Sequence record: ON548432.1
Reading direction: 5' to 3' (one strand)
DNA length: 44,240 bases
Source of the DNA: Escherichia phage vB_EcoS_SCS92
Made by a program: the position numbers and the translations under genes. Below the pieces are notes generated by a model that worked only from the letters and a program-made list of their open reading frames with translations, was not told where the DNA came from and did not search any database. Numbering within the stretch: position 1 is the first letter of the stretch; every line of letters starts with the position of its first letter. Below, one piece after another: positions 1,446 to 41,195 of the stretch.

Positions 1446-2495
1446 TTAAGCACCGACACCAGTTACCAGGAAGGCAATCGGTACGTGCTTGCGGTCAACC
1501 ACACGGTTCCAGTTGGAGGAGTTCGCCAGGTCCTGCCAGGAAGCAGAGCGCGGGGTAGTCTCGGTGCCGTTGCCAGTGATTACTGCACTGGTGAAGCTGT
1601 AACCAAACGGATGTAGCAACCAGGTCTTACGGGTCCACAGGGTTTCAACGCCGCCGCCGTTGCCGCGGGACGCTTCGCGCTCGTATTCCAGCGGGTTGGA
1701 CGGAGAACCTTCACCGTAACCGATAGCGCCGTTGCCGAAGATGATGGAGATGAACTTACGGGTCGGGCCAGTGCCGACTACGGTCATGCTGTCGTCAACA
1801 ATCACGCGGTAGCCCTGGTAGGTGGCGAACATGGTGTTGTTGTCCGCGTCACGGATGAAGTCGATAAGCTGCTGCTTACGTGCCTGCGCATAAACGAAGC
1901 TGTGCATCGCGATAGCACCTAACACTTCACCGCCGTTACCAATCAGAGCGTCACCCATAGTCTGTGTAGCATCGATGAACGCACCGGGGTCGAAGCCCAG
2001 AGTAGCGGACACGTCAATTACCATGTCGTTCCGCTCGTGGTAGGCATCGGTAGCGGCTACGTTGTCGTTGTACAGGCCAAGCGCGGTAGCAATCAGACGG
2101 CGTTGTGCCTGACGCTGCCAGAAGTTATCCAGACGTGACGCTACGGATTGCAGCGGGTTCTGGCTGGTCAGTTCAACGGTCAAATCCGCCTGACCGAAAC
2201 CTTCGTTCAGGTACGCAACGCGCGCCATCATCTCGCCGGTCTGCACGTTACGCGGGGTGGCGATGTCCTGGTATACGTCGTTCGAGTAGTTCGGCTCGAT
2301 AGAGGTATCAATCGCTTTCCAGAAAGGAATATTAGCGACGTTGGACGGGCCGCGGGCAATCTCGGCGGCGTATGGGGTCGGGGTGAGAATACCAGACTGG
2401 AAGAACGCGGTTTTTTCTACCGGGTCCTCGGTCATATAAGACGCCAGGACCGGGATGTTGCCAGTTACGATATCGCCGATAGTGGTAATTGCCAT
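1446..2495 (-). CDS. major capsid protein
   Basis: 349 aa. Directly downstream of the scaffold gene and followed by an attenuator hairpin. Size and position are typical of an HK97-fold capsid protein; the call is by position, not by a recognised motif. Confidence 0.7.
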   Translation of the reverse strand: MAITTIGDIVTGNIPVLASYMTEDPVEKTAFFQSGILTPTPYAAEIARGPSNVANIPFWKAIDTSIEPNYSNDVYQDIATPRNVQTGEMMARVAYLNEGFGQADLTVELTSQNPLQSVASRLDNFWQRQAQRRLIATALGLYNDNVAATDAYHERNDMVIDVSATLGFDPGAFIDATQTMGDALIGNGGEVLGAIAMHSFVYAQARKQQLIDFIRDADNNTMFATYQGYRVIVDDSMTVVGTGPTRKFISIIFGNGAIGYGEGSPSNPLEYEREASRGNGGGVETLWTRKTWLLHPFGYSFTSAVITGNGTETTPRSASWQDLANSSNWNRVVDRKHVPIAFLVTGVGA

Positions 2496-2497
2496 TA

Positions 2498-3199
2498 TTA
2501 TTTCCTCAGGGCTTTAAGTTGCCGTTCAAATTCGGCAGGGTTCGATTTATACAGGGCTAAACGCTCTGCTTCACTCATGTCTTTAAACGCTGGTGCGGCC
2601 CCGCCGCCTTTGCTACCGGAAGCCCCGCCGCCGGAAGCTGCATTTGCTTTAATCAAATGCGAAAACGCTTTGTGCTCTCGCAGGTATTTGCGGAACTGTT
2701 CCGGGTCAGTCGTGATTACGTTACCGTCTGCGCCGACAAACTTAGTAACCACATCATCACCTTCGAACTCAGTCTTAACGAACGGCGCAAGGATGTCCAC
2801 TGCTTCCGGGGTAATAAAGTCACCCGCGAAAGAGCCTAGCACCGCTTTACGTTCGCTGCCGAGGATGCGCTCTGCCATTTTGGAGATGCGGCCATCTTTC
2901 TCGGCTAACACCGGGTCATACTGGCTACGAATCGTCTTTTCAAACTCGTCCATCTTACCGGCGGCCTTTAACGCCTCCTGGTGCGCACGCTGCCGTTCTT
3001 CTTCGGCCTCTTTTGCTTTACGGGCGGCTTCTTTCTTCTCCGCCAGCAATGCTTCCTGATTGGCCTTAAGCCCGGCAACTTCTTTCTCAATCAGCGCCTG
3101 AACTTCTTCAGCGGTGAACATTTTAGGAGCGTCACCGCCACCAGCTTTATCTTCTGCTCCAGCTTCTTCCTGGAACGGATAACGTAAAAAACGATTCAT
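2498..3199 (-). CDS. scaffolding protein
   Basis: Charged, helical, coiled-coil-like sequence (EEVQALIEKEVAGLKANQEALLAEKKEAARKAKEAEEERQRAHQEALKAAGK) immediately upstream of the capsid gene. Likely ATG at 3199 (MNRFLRYP); the track extends to 3253. Confidence 0.55.
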   Translation of the reverse strand: MNRFLRYPFQEEAGAEDKAGGGDAPKMFTAEEVQALIEKEVAGLKANQEALLAEKKEAARKAKEAEEERQRAHQEALKAAGKMDEFEKTIRSQYDPVLAEKDGRISKMAERILGSERKAVLGSFAGDFITPEAVDILAPFVKTEFEGDDVVTKFVGADGNVITTDPEQFRKYLREHKAFSHLIKANAASGGGASGSKGGGAAPAFKDMSEAERLALYKSNPAEFERQLKALRK

Positions 3200-3281
3200 A
3201 GTCAGTATGTCCCCTGGACGTTGGAATCCGGGCCACCCGGATTTACATGTCAAGAATAAATTATTCCAACATGCAAGGCAA

Positions 3282-3545
3282 CTATTCCAGAATATTCCTC
3301 ACGTAATCCTGCAACATGAACACTTTCAGTCTCAGTTGCCGTACGCATTCGGCGTTCTGAACGTCGATAGCTAAATCCTCGTCCGCGTCACTACTTGGTG
3401 GCGCCAGCTTGCACGGCGGCTGCATCATCGTCGTATCCGGGGATGGAATTGGCGTTGGCGACGGCGCGGGACTTGAGCTGCACGCGCTCAGGGTCAAAAG
3501 TGCACACGCTGCGACCTGGCGTTTTAATGTATTTAACGACTTCAC
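3282..3545 (-). CDS. o-spanin (Rz1-like outer-membrane lipoprotein)
   Basis: 87 aa. Signal peptide with lipobox-like LTLSAC, proline-rich mature part. Overlaps the 3' part of the i-spanin gene in another frame. Confidence 0.5.
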   Translation of the reverse strand: MKSLNTLKRQVAACALLTLSACSSSPAPSPTPIPSPDTTMMQPPCKLAPPSSDADEDLAIDVQNAECVRQLRLKVFMLQDYVRNILE

Positions 3546-3777
3546 GGGTAATCACCTCTGATTTCGTCTTGCCTTCGTTGTCAGCGGCGGCGGCCTTTGA
3601 TTCGTCCTGCTGCTGCCGTTGTGTTTTCTTCGCTAACTCAGCCTGCGCTTTCTGCTGTTGCTGCGAAACGAGATTCGCCCGGCCTTCGTTCCAGCCGCTG
3701 CGATACTGGTAGATGCCGTGGGCGTAAGCCAGGATGATGAAACATGCTCCTGCTACGACAGTTGCTTTAAGATTCAT
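3391..3777 (-). CDS. i-spanin (Rz-like)
   Basis: 128 aa. N-terminal transmembrane segment (VVAGACFIILAYAHGIY) followed by a Gln/Ala/Lys-rich coiled coil. AAAGGGGAAAC precedes the ATG. Confidence 0.55.
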   Translation of the reverse strand: MNLKATVVAGACFIILAYAHGIYQYRSGWNEGRANLVSQQQQKAQAELAKKTQRQQQDESKAAAADNEGKTKSEVITREVVKYIKTPGRSVCTFDPERVQLKSRAVANANSIPGYDDDAAAVQAGATK

Positions 3778-4028
3778 GTTTCCCCTTTCTCGATAAGTAA
3801 AGCCCCGCCTTAAAGCGGGGCGCTAGTCCTTATCATTTAAACATAGAAACGGCGTAATCTCAGTAAACCCGTTACTTTTTACACAAGCAATAGAGTATGG
3901 CCCTTCCGAACGCGTCAGCGTAACTACACTCAGGACTTACGTCCCGCTCCGTTACCTGCCCGCGCCGCGGTCGCTTGTTCATACTTCACAAGCTCAGGTG
4001 GAGCTTAGCACATTTTTAGTGAAAAGTC

Positions 4029-4044
4029 AACTATTCGAATAGTT
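4029..4044. repeat. perfect 16-bp palindrome AACTATTCGAATAGTT
   Basis: Read directly. Sits in a 375-bp ORF-free region and overlaps a TTGACT hexamer on the minus strand. Confidence 0.6.
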
Positions 4045-4096
4045 TATTCCAACATTTACAATTGAGTGGAATAACTGGAATACGTAAATAAATAGT

Positions 4097-4125
4097 TTGC
4101 ACACACCAATATAATAGGGTACTAT
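4097..4125 (+). promoter_or_regulatory. sigma70-like promoter (TTGCAC-N17-TACTAT class) with embedded AATAG-N4-CTATT palindrome
   Basis: TTGCAC at 4097-4102, 17-bp spacer, TACTAT at 4120-4125, about 28 bp upstream of a gene with an AGGAGGTG Shine-Dalgarno. Near-identical copies at 38905, 15547(-) and 16739(-). Confidence 0.5.
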
Positions 4126-4152
4126 TCATTTAACTTAAACAGGAGGTGAAAA

Positions 4153-4356
4153 ATGTATGCAATTTGCGAAGTAGTTCAAGAGTTCGATGAAGAGTTCGAC
4201 GGTGACTTGTGCCGGGTTAAAAAGGTTCTGCAGGTTTTCCCTGACGCAATGTCTGCTTACAAGGCATTAGATATATTTGAACCTGGAAGATACGGGGATT
4301 ATGACACTGTTCTGAGGGTTGTCCATGAGCAGGATTTAAACACAAGATTCCGTTGA
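4153..4356 (+). CDS. hypothetical acidic 67-aa protein (opposite-strand moron in the head gene block)
   Basis: Strong AGGAGGTG Shine-Dalgarno 7 bp before the ATG, own promoter and a downstream hairpin. No recognisable domain. Confidence 0.55.
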   Translation: MYAICEVVQEFDEEFDGDLCRVKKVLQVFPDAMSAYKALDIFEPGRYGDYDTVLRVVHEQDLNTRFR

Positions 4357-4380
4357 AAAATAAAGCCCCATTTCGGGGCC
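4353..4380. terminator. terminator hairpin between convergent genes (stronger on minus strand)
   Basis: GCCCC-atttc-GGGGC stem; the minus-strand RNA is followed by TTTATTTTTC. Lies between the 4356 stop (+) and the 4386 stop (-). Confidence 0.4.
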
Positions 4381-4385
4381 TCTTA

Positions 4386-4847
4386 TCATTCGGGCTTAAT
4401 AACCTTCGCCGCTTTACTGAAGGCCTCTACTCCATCGGCATCGGTAACTTTAACGAAGTATTCGCCGACCGCATTAACCGTCAGAGACAGAGCCTCTGCA
4501 GGGGCGTTTACCACTTCCTTACCGTCTTTGTACCAGGTCAGAGAATACGGCGCTTTGCCTGCCTTAACCTCGACAGTGATGGTTGCGCTGCCGCCCGCCA
4601 GTTCAGCGTCCTGCGGTTGCGCAGAGAAATACACGTCGCCAGCGTCCGCCAGATACGGAATTTCATAAAGCATACCGGCGGCGGGCAACGCAATACCGGT
4701 TTTATCTGCAAACGGCATATCATCTACCGGTGTACCGAGTACACTTTCGTCCTCAATAAATACCACGTTCTCGCCAGAGCCAGACACGCGGGCGTACTGG
4801 ACTACGCGACGAGACGGTACGTCAGTTACTTTGAAAAAGCCCATCAT
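4386..4847 (-). CDS. Ig-like domain protein (second copy), putative virion accessory protein
   Basis: 153 aa. C-terminal Ig-like motif APYSLTWYKDGKEV...GEYFVKVTDADG. Confidence 0.5.
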   Translation of the reverse strand: MMGFFKVTDVPSRRVVQYARVSGSGENVVFIEDESVLGTPVDDMPFADKTGIALPAAGMLYEIPYLADAGDVYFSAQPQDAELAGGSATITVEVKAGKAPYSLTWYKDGKEVVNAPAEALSLTVNAVGEYFVKVTDADGVEAFSKAAKVIKPE

Positions 4848-5890
4848 TATTCCCCTTTCAGATAATCAGCAACACGTTTATCGAGTTCCGCCATCTGCTT
4901 AAGCGTGAGCGGATTCCCGAAACCATCTACAGATATTACGCGAAACTCTTCCGGCGATATACCGCTGTTACGGAAAATCTTACCTCGCACCGGGCCGAGC
5001 GCCTGGTCCTGAAACCATGCTGGTTGTTGTTTCAGGAACTCGTAATATGTTGTGTCCGCGCTTACCTGAGTGCCGCCGTCAGCGCCCTTAGCCGCCCGTT
5101 TTGCGCCTTTATCGAGGAAGTCGAACTCTGAACTGATTACCGGAGCCGTGCACGACCGACAATTCGGATGGGCTGGGGGTGTCGGCCCTTTACCGATTTC
5201 CCACGTCATTCCGTCTCTGGCCCTGCAAATAGCGCTGGTACGGCTATCCAGCGTAGACACCCATTCATATTTCTCGATGATGTCGTCGTTCTGGCGGTAT
5301 GTCTCGTTGCGGGCTTCGTTGGATACGTGAGACAGCGCGGTGCGTATTACTGTAGCTGCGTTACGTTCTGAGATGTCAGCCAGCCCGCCCGCGCCTACGA
5401 CATTCTTAACAATCTGCCGTGTTGTCTGGCCTTGTACAAAGCCCATCTTAACGCCGGTTACAAGACGTGCTACTTCCGTTTCACCCCAGCCGTCCATCAG
5501 CTTAGTGAAATCAACGGGCTTGTCACTCAACGATAATGGCTGAAACTCGGCAGCAGCCCACACCTGTTCAGCGGTAGGTGTAACAAATTCCGCGTCTACG
5601 TTGGCGGTCAGTGTCTTTACGTTCCACTCAGCCTCGTACGCCGCCAGTTCCTTAAGGTCGTCTGTCAGCTTTGTCTGCCAGTCGCCCGTAATCCCTGTCA
5701 GTGCTTCTTCAAGGTCCCGTAACAGTTTATTCAGCCGCGCAGTGCTTCGCCCGTCGTCGCCGAATAACAGCACCTGCCGTTTGATTTCATCCCGCATCTC
5801 CTGAATGAACGGTGTGAGGTCTTTCACCTCACCGGATGCGGTGCGTTGCAGCCATATCTGATGGCTGATGAGGGATGTAAGTAAGCTCAT
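4847..5890 (-). CDS. head morphogenesis protein (Mu F / SPP1 gp7-like)
   Basis: 347 aa, directly downstream of the portal gene. Phage Mu F-like signature region (STLDSRTSAICRARDG). Confidence 0.7.
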   Translation of the reverse strand: MSLLTSLISHQIWLQRTASGEVKDLTPFIQEMRDEIKRQVLLFGDDGRSTARLNKLLRDLEEALTGITGDWQTKLTDDLKELAAYEAEWNVKTLTANVDAEFVTPTAEQVWAAAEFQPLSLSDKPVDFTKLMDGWGETEVARLVTGVKMGFVQGQTTRQIVKNVVGAGGLADISERNAATVIRTALSHVSNEARNETYRQNDDIIEKYEWVSTLDSRTSAICRARDGMTWEIGKGPTPPAHPNCRSCTAPVISSEFDFLDKGAKRAAKGADGGTQVSADTTYYEFLKQQPAWFQDQALGPVRGKIFRNSGISPEEFRVISVDGFGNPLTLKQMAELDKRVADYLKGE

Positions 5891-5924
5891 AGATCAACCC
5901 TGTGGCGCTAAAGTTAATAGCATA

Positions 5925-5949
5925 CTATAAGAAAGCCCCTTTCGGGGCT
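5925..5949 (-). terminator. hairpin (attenuator-like) between portal and head morphogenesis genes
   Basis: AGCCCC-tttc-GGGGCT stem; the minus-strand RNA continues with TTTCTTAT. Confidence 0.3.
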
Positions 5950-5959
5950 ATAGGTGAAC

Positions 5960-7441
5960 TTACTGCTGAGTGGTGTCCTGTTGCTGCGCCGACTGCGGAA
6001 TCTCTCCCGCTACCTGAGCAACAGAACCCAACGGCAGAGGTGCGTCTTCAATAGCGTTCTGAATGTCCTCATCTGTCCAGTCAGTCACACCTGCCTTGCG
6101 CAACGCAGCATAGTAAGCGGTGGCGGGTAGCAGGCCAGCGTTAATATCCGCCATCCACTGAGCGCGGTCCTGAGCTGTCATAGGTTGCAGGAAGAATTCC
6201 ATATTCAGCTTGAACTCAATCTCAGTATCTTCACTAAGCCCAAGCATACCCGCAACCCAGCGCAACGCATCGGTATACGCCATGCTTACATTACGTGCTA
6301 TTGTTGCCATGACTGACGTGTCGGCGCCGCGTTGCAGGCGGGCCGATTCCGCGGTGATTTGCTGCGTCGGGGTGATAAGCTGCGCGCCAATCTGGATGGC
6401 CTGATTCTCTTTATCCAGCATATTCTGTTTGGCGAGGTTAGTTTCCGCCGCCTGAACCAGAAACGCATTTCCGCCGGAGCCGATGTTGTGGCCTGAACGC
6501 GACCCCATGCGTATGCCGTGTGGGTTGGCTTCTTTCCACTGCTCCATGCTCATGTTCTCGCCGGGGGCAATGAACAGTGTCGGTTGACCTACTATAAAGC
6601 TGGCCTCTTCCACATCGGCCGAATTTCTGAAGTGTCCTATATTTAGCTCAGCTAACGGCAGTAAAGGCGCATCGTCTATAGTGGCGTCGTTGTTGCTTGC
6701 GCCAATGAACGTGAACGGGATTTTACCGCGCAACTGTTCGCCGAGTTCCGGGAAGATTTCGATTACTTCATCCTGTGCACCACCTTCGGCATCGAAGCGG
6801 TAGATGCGCTGGCGGTAGCGACCGTCAATCAGGTCAAGGACGCGGTATTGCTCGCCGAATTTTGTTTCAAACTCAGCGCCTGGTTCCGAGTATTCCCACA
6901 CCTCACGTAACACGACCATCGTCACACGGTTCACTGAGCCGATGCGGGTCAGTCGCCAGTTGATGATGTTCTCAGCAGTGTAGAATGCAATGACCGGGTT
7001 TAGTAACCCCGCGTTCTGTTCGGCTGCCGTTGCCGCGGCTGTCTCCGGGGCGTCCACCAGCAACCCGCCACGACCCACCGAATCAATCTCCATTAGCGTA
7101 TCCTGTGCGTGCTGCCACAGCCCGACACCAGAACCGTCCGCGTTACGTAACAGGTACTCCAGTTCAGGCGGTATAATCTGCTCGGGGTCTTTGCGCATCA
7201 CTGACCCGACCATCCCCGCCAGCGTTCTCTTGGTGAAGTTGTAACAGATAGCGCCGTTCTCGTATTCTTCCTGGCGCTGTGCCGCGTAGGTCGGGTCCGG
7301 CTCATTCTTCCCAACGTTGCGCAGATAGCGGATAAGGTCGCCTTCCAGCGCGTGGCGCACCTTCTGCCATTTATCGAAGTGGTGCAGCCATTCCCGGTGT
7401 TTTGTCTTAACACCCTGATTCTGACCGTTCATAGTTAACAT
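5960..7441 (-). CDS. portal protein
   Basis: 493 aa, immediately downstream of the terminase large subunit. Size, acidic C-terminal tail and position are typical of a portal. Confidence 0.75.
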   Translation of the reverse strand: MLTMNGQNQGVKTKHREWLHHFDKWQKVRHALEGDLIRYLRNVGKNEPDPTYAAQRQEEYENGAICYNFTKRTLAGMVGSVMRKDPEQIIPPELEYLLRNADGSGVGLWQHAQDTLMEIDSVGRGGLLVDAPETAAATAAEQNAGLLNPVIAFYTAENIINWRLTRIGSVNRVTMVVLREVWEYSEPGAEFETKFGEQYRVLDLIDGRYRQRIYRFDAEGGAQDEVIEIFPELGEQLRGKIPFTFIGASNNDATIDDAPLLPLAELNIGHFRNSADVEEASFIVGQPTLFIAPGENMSMEQWKEANPHGIRMGSRSGHNIGSGGNAFLVQAAETNLAKQNMLDKENQAIQIGAQLITPTQQITAESARLQRGADTSVMATIARNVSMAYTDALRWVAGMLGLSEDTEIEFKLNMEFFLQPMTAQDRAQWMADINAGLLPATAYYAALRKAGVTDWTDEDIQNAIEDAPLPLGSVAQVAGEIPQSAQQQDTTQQ

Positions 7442-15397: not shown

Positions 15398-15515
15398 ATT
15401 CTTCACTCACTCCGTTATAGACGCCGTTGTAATCTCCGTCGCAGATGAACGGGTAGAGCATATCTTCATACTCGTCCTGCAACTCGCCTAAAGTCACTTC
15501 GCTATAATCTTTCAT
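15387..15515 (-). CDS. hypothetical 42-aa acidic protein
   Basis: ORF below the track threshold. GAGGAG Shine-Dalgarno; first gene after the promoter at 15547-15575. Confidence 0.3.
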   Translation of the reverse strand: MKDYSEVTLGELQDEYEDMLYPFICDGDYNGVYNGVSEEYEY

Positions 15516-19900: not shown

Positions 19901-19926
19901 GTAAAAAGAAAGGGGCTTTAAGCCCC
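19901..19926 (-). terminator. terminator hairpin between the convergent primase and HTH genes
   Basis: GGGGCT-tta-AGCCCC stem; the minus-strand RNA is followed by TTCTTTTTAC. The stem overlaps the HTH gene stop. Confidence 0.45.
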
Positions 19927-20133
19927 TTCACCTAACGCCAACCACTTGGCGTCTACTTCAAGCACTTCCGCCAGTTTAAACAGCGTCGCCGGGCGGACAT
20001 CCTGAGTTACCCCAAGTGCAAGCTGGTTAATCGCGCCCTGGGAGACACCGGCCAGGACAGCCAGACGGCGCTGGGAGATGCCGAGTTCTTTACGGCGTTG
20101 TTCTACACGAATGCCTAGTTCAGATGGTTGCAT
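19918..20133 (-). CDS. XRE-family (Cro/CI-type) HTH transcriptional regulator
   Basis: 71 aa. QRRKELGISQRRLAVLAGVSQGAINQLALG is a classic HTH_XRE motif. AAGGAG Shine-Dalgarno. Lone minus-strand gene with a divergent promoter region. Confidence 0.8.
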   Translation of the reverse strand: MQPSELGIRVEQRRKELGISQRRLAVLAGVSQGAINQLALGVTQDVRPATLFKLAEVLEVDAKWLALGEGA

Positions 20134-38904: not shown

Positions 38905-38933
38905 TTGCACACCCCAATATAATAGGGTACTAT
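38905..38933 (+). promoter_or_regulatory. sigma70-like promoter (TTGCAC-N17-TACTAT class) with AATAG-N4-CTATT palindrome, driving the opposite-strand island
   Basis: CTTGCACaccccaatataatagggTACTAT, 28 bp upstream of the ATG at 38962. Confidence 0.55.
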
Positions 38934-38961
38934 TCACCAGTAACTTACTGAGGGTATAATT

Positions 38962-39288
38962 ATGCGTAAATTAGTATTAGCTCTGGGGTTTATGTCTTTT
39001 GCTACTTTTGGAGCCCCGTGCGAACAGGTATTTAGTGAATCCGTTCTTATGACTTCTGGTGTGCTTGATAAAGCCGACCTTACTATTGTAAAGGCATTTA
39101 AAGACTCTACAGTTCGCGAGTGTGAGGCTGCCGTAGTGGTTGGTAAATCGGGCCTGCCTCCGCAAGCCGTAACATACTCGGTAATACGTTCTGTAGAGAA
39201 AAACGGAGACGCGTTTTACAGCCTACTGACAGCCACCCGCCTGCAAATGGTGATGACCGGGTGGGCGATAGGCGCGGAAAGTAAATAG
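38962..39288 (+). CDS. small secreted/periplasmic protein with signal peptide (candidate superinfection-exclusion factor)
   Basis: 108 aa. N-terminus MRKLVLALGFMSFATFGAP is a signal peptide. Opposite strand to the tail genes, with its own early-type promoter. Confidence 0.5.
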   Translation: MRKLVLALGFMSFATFGAPCEQVFSESVLMTSGVLDKADLTIVKAFKDSTVRECEAAVVVGKSGLPPQAVTYSVIRSVEKNGDAFYSLLTATRLQMVMTGWAIGAESK

Positions 39289-39353
39289 TCGCCTTTATTT
39301 AAAGGAATGCACTGTGGTTAAATAGGACAAATCCTAAACACGAGGAAGTAAGC

Positions 39354-40484
39354 ATGGCCCGGAAGAAAATAACCGACGAACAGTTGCAGGAAGAATTGAA
39401 CGCCGGGATGAAGAATATCGATATCGCCCGTAAATACGGAATCTCAGACCGCGTTATTCGTATCCGTAAAGCGAAGCTGGCTAAGAAAGGTGTAGGCCAC
39501 GGGCGTGACGTTAGCCACCTTGTCCCAGACGGCTACAAGATTAAAGGGACGTCGTCCCTGGTGGACGAGTTCGGCAACACTAAGTTGCAATGGGTTAAGA
39601 CCGACGCTGATGCCGAACGTCAGGTTGAATTGATGAAAGCCGTAATAGAGGGCATGAAGTCAGAGATTACGCCCGTTGCGCCTGTTAAACCGGCACGAGC
39701 CAAACGTGACGATAAACTACTCAATCTTTACACGGTATCTGATTTCCATCTCGGTATGCTGGCATGGGCCGATGAGAGCGGCGACGACTGGGACATGAAG
39801 ATTGCAGAAGACCTGTTCTCTCGGTGGTTCGACGCGGCGTTTCAGAAAGCACCGGATGCAGGAACAGGAGTTATTAACCTGCTTGGCGACCTTGCACACT
39901 TCGATAGTCTGGACGCCGTTACCCCGGCAAGTGGTCATGTTCTCGATGCGGACACGCGCTACCAGAAACTGGTTCGCTACATGATTCGTATGGTCCGCCG
40001 TGTTGTCGATATGGCCCTTGTTAAGCATAAAAATGTTCGCTTGCTTATCGTACAAGGGAACCACGACGAAAGCGGAATGATTTGGTTAGCTGAGATGTTC
40101 AGTACGCTGTACGACAATGAGCCTCGTGTGTTCGTCGATACGTCGCCGGATGTTTACAAGATGGTGCAACACGGCAAAACGACGCTGTTCTTTACACACG
40201 GGCATAAATGCCGGTTTGAGGTGGTCGAACCCATTATGATAGCTAAGTTCAGAAAAGCATTTGGCGAAAGCGAGTACAGTTACGCACATGTCGGTCATCT
40301 CCACCATCAAAAGATTGTAGAAAGTAGGAATATGGTAGTGGAACAACATCGCACTCTCGCGGCGAAAGATGCATATGCTTCCCGCGGTGGGTGGATGTCT
40401 AAGAGGTCCGCTAATGTCATAACCTATAGTTCAGAGTTCGGGGAAGTAGGTAGGCTTTCGATCTCACCGGAGATGCTAAGATGA
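39354..40484 (+). CDS. HTH-fused metallophosphoesterase (calcineurin-like)
   Basis: 376 aa. N-terminal HTH-like region (NIDIARKYGISDRVIRIRKAKL) and C-terminal metallophosphoesterase motifs (DFHLG, LLGDLAHFD, VQGNHDE, FTHGH, HVGHLHH). Confidence 0.65.
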   Translation: MARKKITDEQLQEELNAGMKNIDIARKYGISDRVIRIRKAKLAKKGVGHGRDVSHLVPDGYKIKGTSSLVDEFGNTKLQWVKTDADAERQVELMKAVIEGMKSEITPVAPVKPARAKRDDKLLNLYTVSDFHLGMLAWADESGDDWDMKIAEDLFSRWFDAAFQKAPDAGTGVINLLGDLAHFDSLDAVTPASGHVLDADTRYQKLVRYMIRMVRRVVDMALVKHKNVRLLIVQGNHDESGMIWLAEMFSTLYDNEPRVFVDTSPDVYKMVQHGKTTLFFTHGHKCRFEVVEPIMIAKFRKAFGESEYSYAHVGHLHHQKIVESRNMVVEQHRTLAAKDAYASRGGWMSKRSANVITYSSEFGEVGRLSISPEMLR

Positions 40485-40951
40485 AGTACCTTGATGTTTC
40501 AAAACAATTTAAATACTGCCCTGATACTGGGCAGGTTACCAGGATATCTACTGGTGCTGAGGTTGGTACGGTTGGTGTAAGAGGCTATCTGTGCTGCGGT
40601 ATGGGTGGCAAAACAGTGTATGTCCACCGCATAGCATGGTGTCTTTATAATAAATGTGACTTAGACAGGAAAACTCAAATAGACCACATAAACCATAACA
40701 GGCTAGACAATAGAATAGAAAATCTACGCGCCACCGACAATACAGGGAACAGTAAAAATAAAACTATGAGAAAGATAAATAAATCCGGGGCTACAGGTGT
40801 AAGTTTCCACAAAGCCGCGGGTAAGTGGCGCGCGTTTATAAAAGTTAACTACAAACAAGTGCATTTAGGGCTTTACGACGATTTTGATGTAGCGGTTGCC
40901 GCGCGTAAAGCCGCCGAGAGTAAATACGGTTTCCATGAAAACCATGAGTAG
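40481..40951 (+). CDS. HNH homing endonuclease with AP2-type DNA-binding domain (second copy)
   Basis: IDHINHNRLDNRIENLR HNH motif and AP2-like C-terminus (SGATGVSFHKAAGKWRAFIKVNYKQVHLGLYDD...KYGFHENHE). Paralogous to the gene at 14275-14748. Confidence 0.8.
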   Translation: MKYLDVSKQFKYCPDTGQVTRISTGAEVGTVGVRGYLCCGMGGKTVYVHRIAWCLYNKCDLDRKTQIDHINHNRLDNRIENLRATDNTGNSKNKTMRKINKSGATGVSFHKAAGKWRAFIKVNYKQVHLGLYDDFDVAVAARKAAESKYGFHENHE

Positions 40952-40964
40952 GGGAGATTGATTT

Positions 40965-41195
40965 ATGACTTCAAAATACAACCGCACAATGACAAATACT
41001 CACGGCAGCACTATGACAGTAGACGTTTATGATGTGCTCCGCGCCTTCGATATACGCGACCCGGCGCTACAGCACGCATTGAAGAAGCTATTGTGCATGG
41101 GCTTGCGCGGACACAAGGACACCGGAACCGACTTAGCGGAAGCAATTGAAAGTCTGGAGAAGTTACGGGAATACCGAAGCAATATTGATGAGTAA
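40965..41195 (+). CDS. hypothetical conserved phage protein
   Basis: 76 aa. VDVYDVLRAFDIRDPALQHALKKLLCMGLRGHKD resembles a recurrent small phage protein family seen from memory. Confidence 0.45.
   Translation: MTSKYNRTMTNTHGSTMTVDVYDVLRAFDIRDPALQHALKKLLCMGLRGHKDTGTDLAEAIESLEKLREYRSNIDE

Follow-up and report, generated by a model that had tools for sequence, protein, structure and literature searches.

ORF67, the putative payload of an exchangeable accessory cassette between the Hoc-like and spanin genes of a virulent Escherichia Kagunavirus

Morons, in the work of Hendrix, Juhala and colleagues on phages HK97 and HK022, are reportedly units of promoter, gene and terminator which lie between conserved structural genes. 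In phage genomes, counter-defence genes are over-represented in the variable accessory regions (bioRxiv 10.1101/2023.04.06.535777). Kagunaviruses are small virulent siphoviruses (PMC7203180; PMC11990801), described without lysogeny genes (PMC7203180). Here we analyzed the open reading frame of a 67-aa protein, ORF67, in the sequence of Escherichia phage vB_EcoS_SCS92 (ON548432.1); the whole stretch of 44,240 nucleotides is referred to as the window. A first-pass annotation, made from the letters alone, had read this gene as a moron inserted antisense in the late genes, with a class 1 promoter of its own and a strong ribosome-binding site, and followed by a terminator hairpin. It had proposed comparative genomics and structure prediction as checks, and a lack of conservation and expression of the ORF as evidence against the reading. 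We estimate a probability of about 0.55 that ORF67 is the payload of an exchangeable accessory cassette and a putative early inhibitor of a host protein.

The region 3300-4900 of the window matches 303 phage records, with Escherichia Kagunaviruses (Guernseyvirinae) at the top, and the phage was identified as a Kagunavirus. No integrase or lysogeny module was found among the annotated relatives. Phage NTEC3 (OK539620) is near-identical to the window, with the same length (44,240 bp) and coinciding coordinates, and all differences between them are substitutions: 68 in the region 1800-6400 and none inside ORF67. The absence of substitutions in ORF67 was discarded as a signal, given that about 3 were expected and the difference is not significant. 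In NTEC3 and in the BASEL phages Bas70-76, ORF67 is already annotated as a hypothetical protein, and all seven BASEL Kagunaviruses carry an identical or near-identical ORF67. ORF67 is an ordinary phage accessory gene, already deposited, and its cassette is an ordinary kind of phage feature. With regard to the records, NTEC3 shows no CDS for the 349-aa major capsid protein ORF found at 1446-2495 (minus strand) of the window, and phage SHAK7858 carries an Autographiviridae taxonomy line, yet its genome is Kagunavirus-like.

The features of the locus and the cargos found at the same site in related phages are collected in Table 1. The ORF67 protein has a predicted molecular weight of 7.9 kDa, a predicted pI of 4.5 and a charge at pH 7 of -6.4, and the GGAGG core of its ribosome-binding site ends 6 nt before the ATG; both the acidic product and the strong ribosome-binding site described in the first-pass annotation are thus borne out. 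ORF67 is antisense to both flanks, the Hoc-like and Rz/Rz1 genes being on the minus strand, and the PHROG and Pfam matches of these flanks confirm their identity as an Ig-like gene and the spanins. The G+C content of ORF67 is 43.1%, in relation to 53.5% in Hoc and 56.1% in Rz, and is among the lowest 7% of 204-nt windows. A 42-aa antisense ORF inside ORF67 (4217..4345) was rejected, with nothing backing it.

Table 1. Features of the ORF67 locus in the window, and alternative cargos of the same slot in related phages.
Feature	Position	Strand	Evidence or size
ORF67 CDS, acidic soluble 67-aa protein	4153..4356	+	ATG to TGA; homologues, dN/dS, model
Ribosome-binding site AGGAGGTG	4141-4148	+	Read directly from sequence
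Phage promoter motif, presumed early: -35 TTGCAC (4097-4102), conserved 17-nt spacer, -10 TACTAT (4120-4125)	4097..4125	+	Repeats, conservation
Whole accessory cassette (insertion in relation to empty-slot relatives)	4084..4361	+	Alignment with empty-slot loci
G+C-rich hairpin: Hoc terminator, possibly bidirectional stop for ORF67	4362..4382	.	Terminator scan, minus strand only
Hoc-like Ig-domain head decoration gene; right-hand conserved flank	4386..4847	-	phrog_3945, E 1.6e-84; Ig-type Pfam matches
Conserved non-coding core, 306 nt, with palindrome, inverted repeat, promoter-like site, leader and terminator	3778..4083	-	Conservation, folding, scan
Rz spanin gene; left-hand conserved flank	3391..3777	-	PHROG (phrog_2536 and phrog_5672 for Rz/Rz1)
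Rz1 spanin gene, embedded; left-hand conserved flank	3282..3545	-	PHROG (phrog_2536 and phrog_5672 for Rz/Rz1)
Slot cargo: membrane peptides			33 aa and 70 aa
Slot cargo: proteins of unassigned role			57, 81, 83 and 94 aa
Slot cargo: lipoprotein with lipobox			
Slot cargo: clamp-like protein			173 aa; phrog_3007
Slot cargo: EndoVII/HNH-like proteins			phrog_1035
Slot cargo: N6/N4 DNA methylase			PF01555, E 6e-30

Close homologues of ORF67 numbered 18 among 5.8 billion clustered proteins, and an exhaustive profile search of 1.8 billion proteins recovered only 22 representatives of the family, almost all of them stand-alone proteins of 63-75 aa. The alignment, which covers Kagunavirus, Jerseyvirus, Cornellvirus, Jedunavirus and a 60-kb Klebsiella phage, has 16 columns without any variation; C5, an F-D-G turn, L-Q and a C-terminal F-R are among them, and identities between genera are 46-63%. 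Values of dN/dS in relation to three closer homologues were 0.08, 0.17, and 0.23, and ORF67 is under purifying selection; the ORF is conserved, contrary to the outcome which would have spoken against the first-pass reading. According to the AlphaFold2 model (pLDDT 86.6), the protein is confidently predicted as a compact fold with a beta-hairpin, a helix and a strand (beta-beta-alpha-beta), and no signal peptide or membrane segment was found in its sequence. In the profile library, the sole family matched by ORF67 is the unannotated PHROG 27256, a weak match (E 4e-4) which places residues 2-67 on positions 4-65 of the 65 in the profile. Judged from its sequence, ORF67 is a real gene.

Searches for a function gave no Pfam, PADLOC or PDB sequence match for ORF67. 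The search of its model with Foldseek against PDB returned nothing significant (E > 0.8), while the matches in BFVD were all uncharacterised phage proteins. A ClpS-like adaptor fold was considered and rejected, as no significant structural superposition was obtained, and no similarity in sequence or fold was found to characterised anti-defence families with solved structures. A tRNA scan gave nothing usable. Furthermore, the ORF67 peptide had no match in the full-text literature, nor ORF67 in the supplements of the accessory-gene screen of Silas et al. and its follow-up. For the BASEL Kagunaviruses, high sensitivity to restriction-modification and variable sensitivity to Old are reported (PMC11990801), and because these carriers (Bas70-76) show such sensitivity to restriction-modification, ORF67 is not expected to be a broad, Ocr-like anti-restriction factor.

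The promoter of ORF67 corresponds to a 29-nt motif, TTGCACACCCCAATATAATAGGGTACTAT, which has four copies in the window, at 4097 (plus strand), 15547 (minus), 16739 (minus) and 38905 (plus), in relation to 0.61 expected; none of 100 shuffles gave four. TCA follows every copy, and 27-37 nt further on a block of genes in the same orientation opens with the start codon of its first gene. Besides ORF67, the motif heads a series of small genes running leftward from 16704, an internal restart at 15515, and an island of four antisense genes which begins at 38962 in the tail module. Since there are four copies, each ahead of the first gene of a block, the class 1 promoter of the first-pass annotation proves to be a real repeated element. 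The ORF67 copy agrees with the generic sigma-70 consensus at 7 of 12 positions, and it was missed by a generic sigma-70 scan because its -35 agrees at only three of six. It is kept 5' of every alternative cargo of the slot and in the Jerseyvirus VSt10. By their position, the promoters of this motif are presumed to be early, and from the conservation of the spacer, the site of a regulator may overlap the promoter.

The antisense island headed by the copy at 38905 spans 38905-41195 (plus strand) within the tail module, and encodes a membrane protein, an SbcD-like phosphoesterase, an HNH endonuclease and a small ORF. In one relative, the membrane protein is annotated as superinfection immunity.

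Downstream of ORF67, the hairpin sits in the 29-nt gap which separates the convergent stop codons of ORF67 and Hoc. Its tail is ATTTTTC on the minus strand, the Hoc side, and CTCTTATCATTC on the plus strand, where the T-tract is weak. Most cargo-bearing alleles show T-runs on both sides of the terminator (AAAACTAAGGCCCC...GGGGCCTTTTATCA), while empty-slot alleles show a T-run only on the Hoc side; the allele of the window is Golestan-like, with the weaker plus-strand tail. A terminator dedicated to ORF67 was rejected, and the hairpin is taken as a shared and at best bidirectional terminator, because it is also present in empty-slot relatives and was called on the minus strand only. The hairpin reported 3' of the gene is thus present; however, it does not belong to ORF67 alone, being part of the phage backbone and common to the convergent Hoc gene.

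The interval between Hoc and Rz was measured in 43 loci, with 39 related loci fetched through the Hoc-like protein. In nine of the 43, the interval is 339-343 nt long and empty, with both the promoter and the ORF absent. Filled intervals range between 507 and 1308 nt, and that of the window is 608 nt. In the alignment, the window departs from the empty form directly after GGAATA (4077-4082) and becomes homologous to it again at the hairpin, and these breakpoints therefore delimit an insertion at approximately 4084-4361. Filled slots show the same promoter (TTGCA-N18-TACTAT) and ribosome-binding site followed by unrelated ORFs, with at least 10 non-homologous cargos across relatives. Of about 300 related phage records, only about 19 have ORF67 at this site. 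Phage K1B4 has a slot of 925 nt with a different cargo, and the RNA-seq study of K1B4 annotated no gene there. The comparison of loci thus shows a slot which is either empty or filled by unrelated genes behind the same promoter. A second cargo slot is seen at the junction of the portal and head-morphogenesis genes (5891-5959), which is 69 nt long and empty in the window; in VSt10 it is occupied by the ORF67 cassette, and in M01 and K1B4 by other antisense ORFs.

Homologues of ORF67 were also found at other sites. In the Salmonella phage VSt10, a 63%-identical ORF67 lies between the portal and head-morphogenesis genes, in a unit which has a promoter of the same type, a ribosome-binding site and a good terminator of its own, and the Hoc-Rz slot of this phage contains an EndoVII-like gene in place of ORF67. 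Unrelated phages of Klebsiella and Salmonella also carry homologues, within runs of early genes. Both Shemara and Geezett have a sigma-70-like promoter ahead of the homologue: TTGCAT-N17-TATAGT in Shemara, where the homologue comes first behind this promoter and a terminator, and TTGACG-N17-TAGAGT in Geezett, where the homologue opens an antisense pair located between the MuF-like gene and the portal gene. Kpn2-P2 and several metagenomic contigs show the homologue amid runs of small genes, near genes which encode Lar-type restriction-alleviation, N4 gp8-like and sub-threshold Acb1-like proteins. In Klebsiella phage vB_Kpn2-P2, the gene immediately 5' of the homologue (L009 2024-2482) is annotated as an RNA ligase, and its match to the anti-CBASS Acb1 family is sub-threshold (E 1e-3, 19.3 bits in relation to a cutoff of 27). 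A conserved partner gene was rejected, as the genes 3' of the Geezett and Kpn2-P2 homologues are unrelated to each other. From the contexts compared, ORF67 is shown to move between sites and phage groups.

On these data, what the first-pass annotation observed is confirmed, and its moron reading is supported. The comparative genomics proposed there found nine empty loci, with exact boundaries, and at least 10 alternative cargos between the same two flanks; the base composition of ORF67 is distinct from that of Hoc and Rz, and horizontal transfer is seen in homologues from Jerseyvirus, Cornellvirus, Jedunavirus and the 60-kb Klebsiella phage, in differing contexts. An empty or variable slot together with a relocated unit in VSt10 therefore supports a moron-like reading. 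However, prophage expression or lysogenic conversion does not apply, the phage being virulent, and for this reason we prefer the term accessory cassette over moron in the strict sense. By its organization, the ORF67 cassette may be said to correspond to the structural definition of a moron and, with variable non-homologous content between core genes, to the definition of a phage accessory region.

The non-coding core between Rz and the cassette is present in every relative, empty-slot ones included. It is 96.7% identical between the window and VSt10, in relation to 74-87% for the flanking genes, and at least 95% identical in 178 of the 180 phage records with a match. On its minus strand we read a promoter-like sequence, TTGACT-N17-TGcTAAGCT (-35 at 4030..4025 and -10 at 4007..4002), with a structured leader of approximately 190 nt 3' of it and a terminator, found by the scan at 3821..3802 (minus strand), directly ahead of the Rz ribosome-binding site. 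The folding energy of the leader is -72.5 kcal/mol on the minus strand and -56.1 kcal/mol on the plus strand. Its consensus structure shows six pairs with compensatory double changes, where shuffles gave 1.0 ± 0.9 and slid controls 0-2, and nine G-U pairs which would be mismatches if read on the opposite strand. No Rfam family was matched by the whole window at gathering score or by the region 3760-4160 at E up to 10. Possibly, the core serves the lysis and head operon as a leader of the attenuation or antitermination type, or as a small RNA. A 36-aa ORF in this region of Bas74 (Bas74_0007, approximately 3872-3982, minus strand) and SHAK7858 is probably not a gene; the Bas74_0007 ORF is truncated, frameshifted or start-less in at least eight relatives.

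The same core contains a perfect 16-nt palindrome, AACTATTCGAATAGTT, at 4029-4044, an 8-nt inverted repeat, TTATTCCA/TGGAATAA, formed by 4044-4051 with 4067-4074, and a third TGGAATA at 4076-4082. This operator-like cluster lies between the two divergent promoters. The window has 11 copies of the heptamer ACTATTC in relation to 4.6 expected, eight of them in promoter-like contexts. In the replication module, a stand-alone antisense gene at 19918-20133 (minus strand) encodes a 71-aa protein with a helix-turn-helix look of the Cro/CI type by eye, and two ACTATTCAC -10-like elements lie 5' of it; this protein is a candidate regulator of the ACTATTC-containing sites.

According to the main reading, the phage promoter, the strong ribosome-binding site, ORF67 and the terminator common to Hoc would form a self-contained, horizontally exchangeable cassette in the hypervariable Hoc-spanin slot of a virulent Kagunavirus. 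Host sigma-70 RNA polymerase would transcribe ORF67 from the 29-nt promoter, independently of the neighbouring head and lysis genes and antisense to them, and since this promoter also heads presumed-early blocks of small genes, synthesis of ORF67 would begin soon after infection. Cassettes would be swapped by recombination, with the conserved promoter as the left homology arm and the conserved terminator as the right one. The protein itself would be cytoplasmic and stoichiometric, and would bind and neutralise a host protein. As to the target, our guess, which we hold at somewhat less than even odds, is that ORF67 is made early, is soluble and inhibits a host protein stoichiometrically, the target most likely being part of a defence which only some hosts possess; this guess is based on the size and charge of the gene product, its dispensability, its patchy distribution and the nature of the slot. 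A target defence present in only some hosts would explain that ORF67 is dispensable and patchily distributed. We consider it rather unlikely that ORF67 founds a new family of counter-defence proteins or host inhibitors, with a fold lacking a solved relative, on a promoter-bearing mini-cassette. As part of that same doubtful proposal, the mini-cassette would hop from one head-gene junction to another in Guernseyvirinae and would also enter the early regions of enterobacterial phages unrelated to them, with the conserved promoter and terminator of the slot as a natural landing pad for genes of this kind.

Ranked next after inhibition of a defence is a general role in host takeover, in which ORF67 would inhibit or redirect a housekeeping function early, unrelated to immunity, and thereby speed infection; transcription, division, a nuclease or a protease adaptor would be possible targets, and we rate this role as unlikely. 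A role in competition between phages, as superinfection exclusion of other phages or mobile elements in the infected cell, is improbable. Other cargos of the slot, such as the lipoprotein with a lipobox and the two membrane peptides, are exclusion-like, and the second antisense island with the same promoter opens with a membrane protein called superinfection immunity in one record; however, ORF67 is predicted as a compact soluble protein with neither signal peptide nor membrane segment, and cytoplasmic exclusion is of little benefit to a virulent phage whose cycle is short.

The neighbourhood of the operator-like cluster and the leader RNA would suit a regulator of the late switch of the phage, acting on the adjacent divergent minus-strand promoter or on the leader. 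This is very improbable, since phages with an almost identical leader hold unrelated genes or none at that place, ORF67 is placed elsewhere in VSt10 and other phages, and the protein is acidic and has no nucleic-acid-binding motif. Hardly credible is a chance or decaying ORF which is not expressed: dN/dS far below 1, columns conserved across genera at 46-63% identity, a confident fold, and a strong ribosome-binding site and promoter retained in every context all argue against it. An exchangeable cassette with ORF67 as a putative early inhibitor of a host protein is our preferred explanation.

The Hoc-Rz junction of Kagunaviruses and Jerseyviruses is a natural cargo site, with a fixed promoter and terminator and natural empty alleles, and would be a safe insertion point for the engineering of these small therapeutic phages. 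ORF67 and the approximately 10 alternative cargos are candidates for screens of anti-defence or host-manipulation activity. Should a defence system prove to be inhibited by ORF67, the repertoire of anti-defence proteins would gain a new fold.

Compared with T7 Ocr, T7 gp5.9, ArdA and many anti-CRISPRs, ORF67 is likewise small, acidic, dispensable, patchily distributed and probably expressed first; unlike them, it shows no sequence or significant fold similarity to these proteins, its charge density is moderate (-6 over 67 aa), and the phages which carry it are sensitive to restriction-modification. As in lambdoid morons, the ORF67 unit is inserted between genes which are adjacent in relatives, is polymorphic in its presence or absence, has a lower G+C content than its flanks and lies in the late structural region. 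It differs from them in that its carrier is virulent, with neither expression from a repressed prophage nor lysogenic conversion, its promoter is the repeated and presumed early promoter of the phage itself, and its terminator is common to Hoc. The accessory regions of enterobacteriophages described by Silas et al. (bioRxiv 10.1101/2023.04.06.535777) also consist of variable, dispensable and transferred genes between core genes; unlike those regions, the Hoc-Rz junction is a slot for one gene with a conserved promoter built into it.
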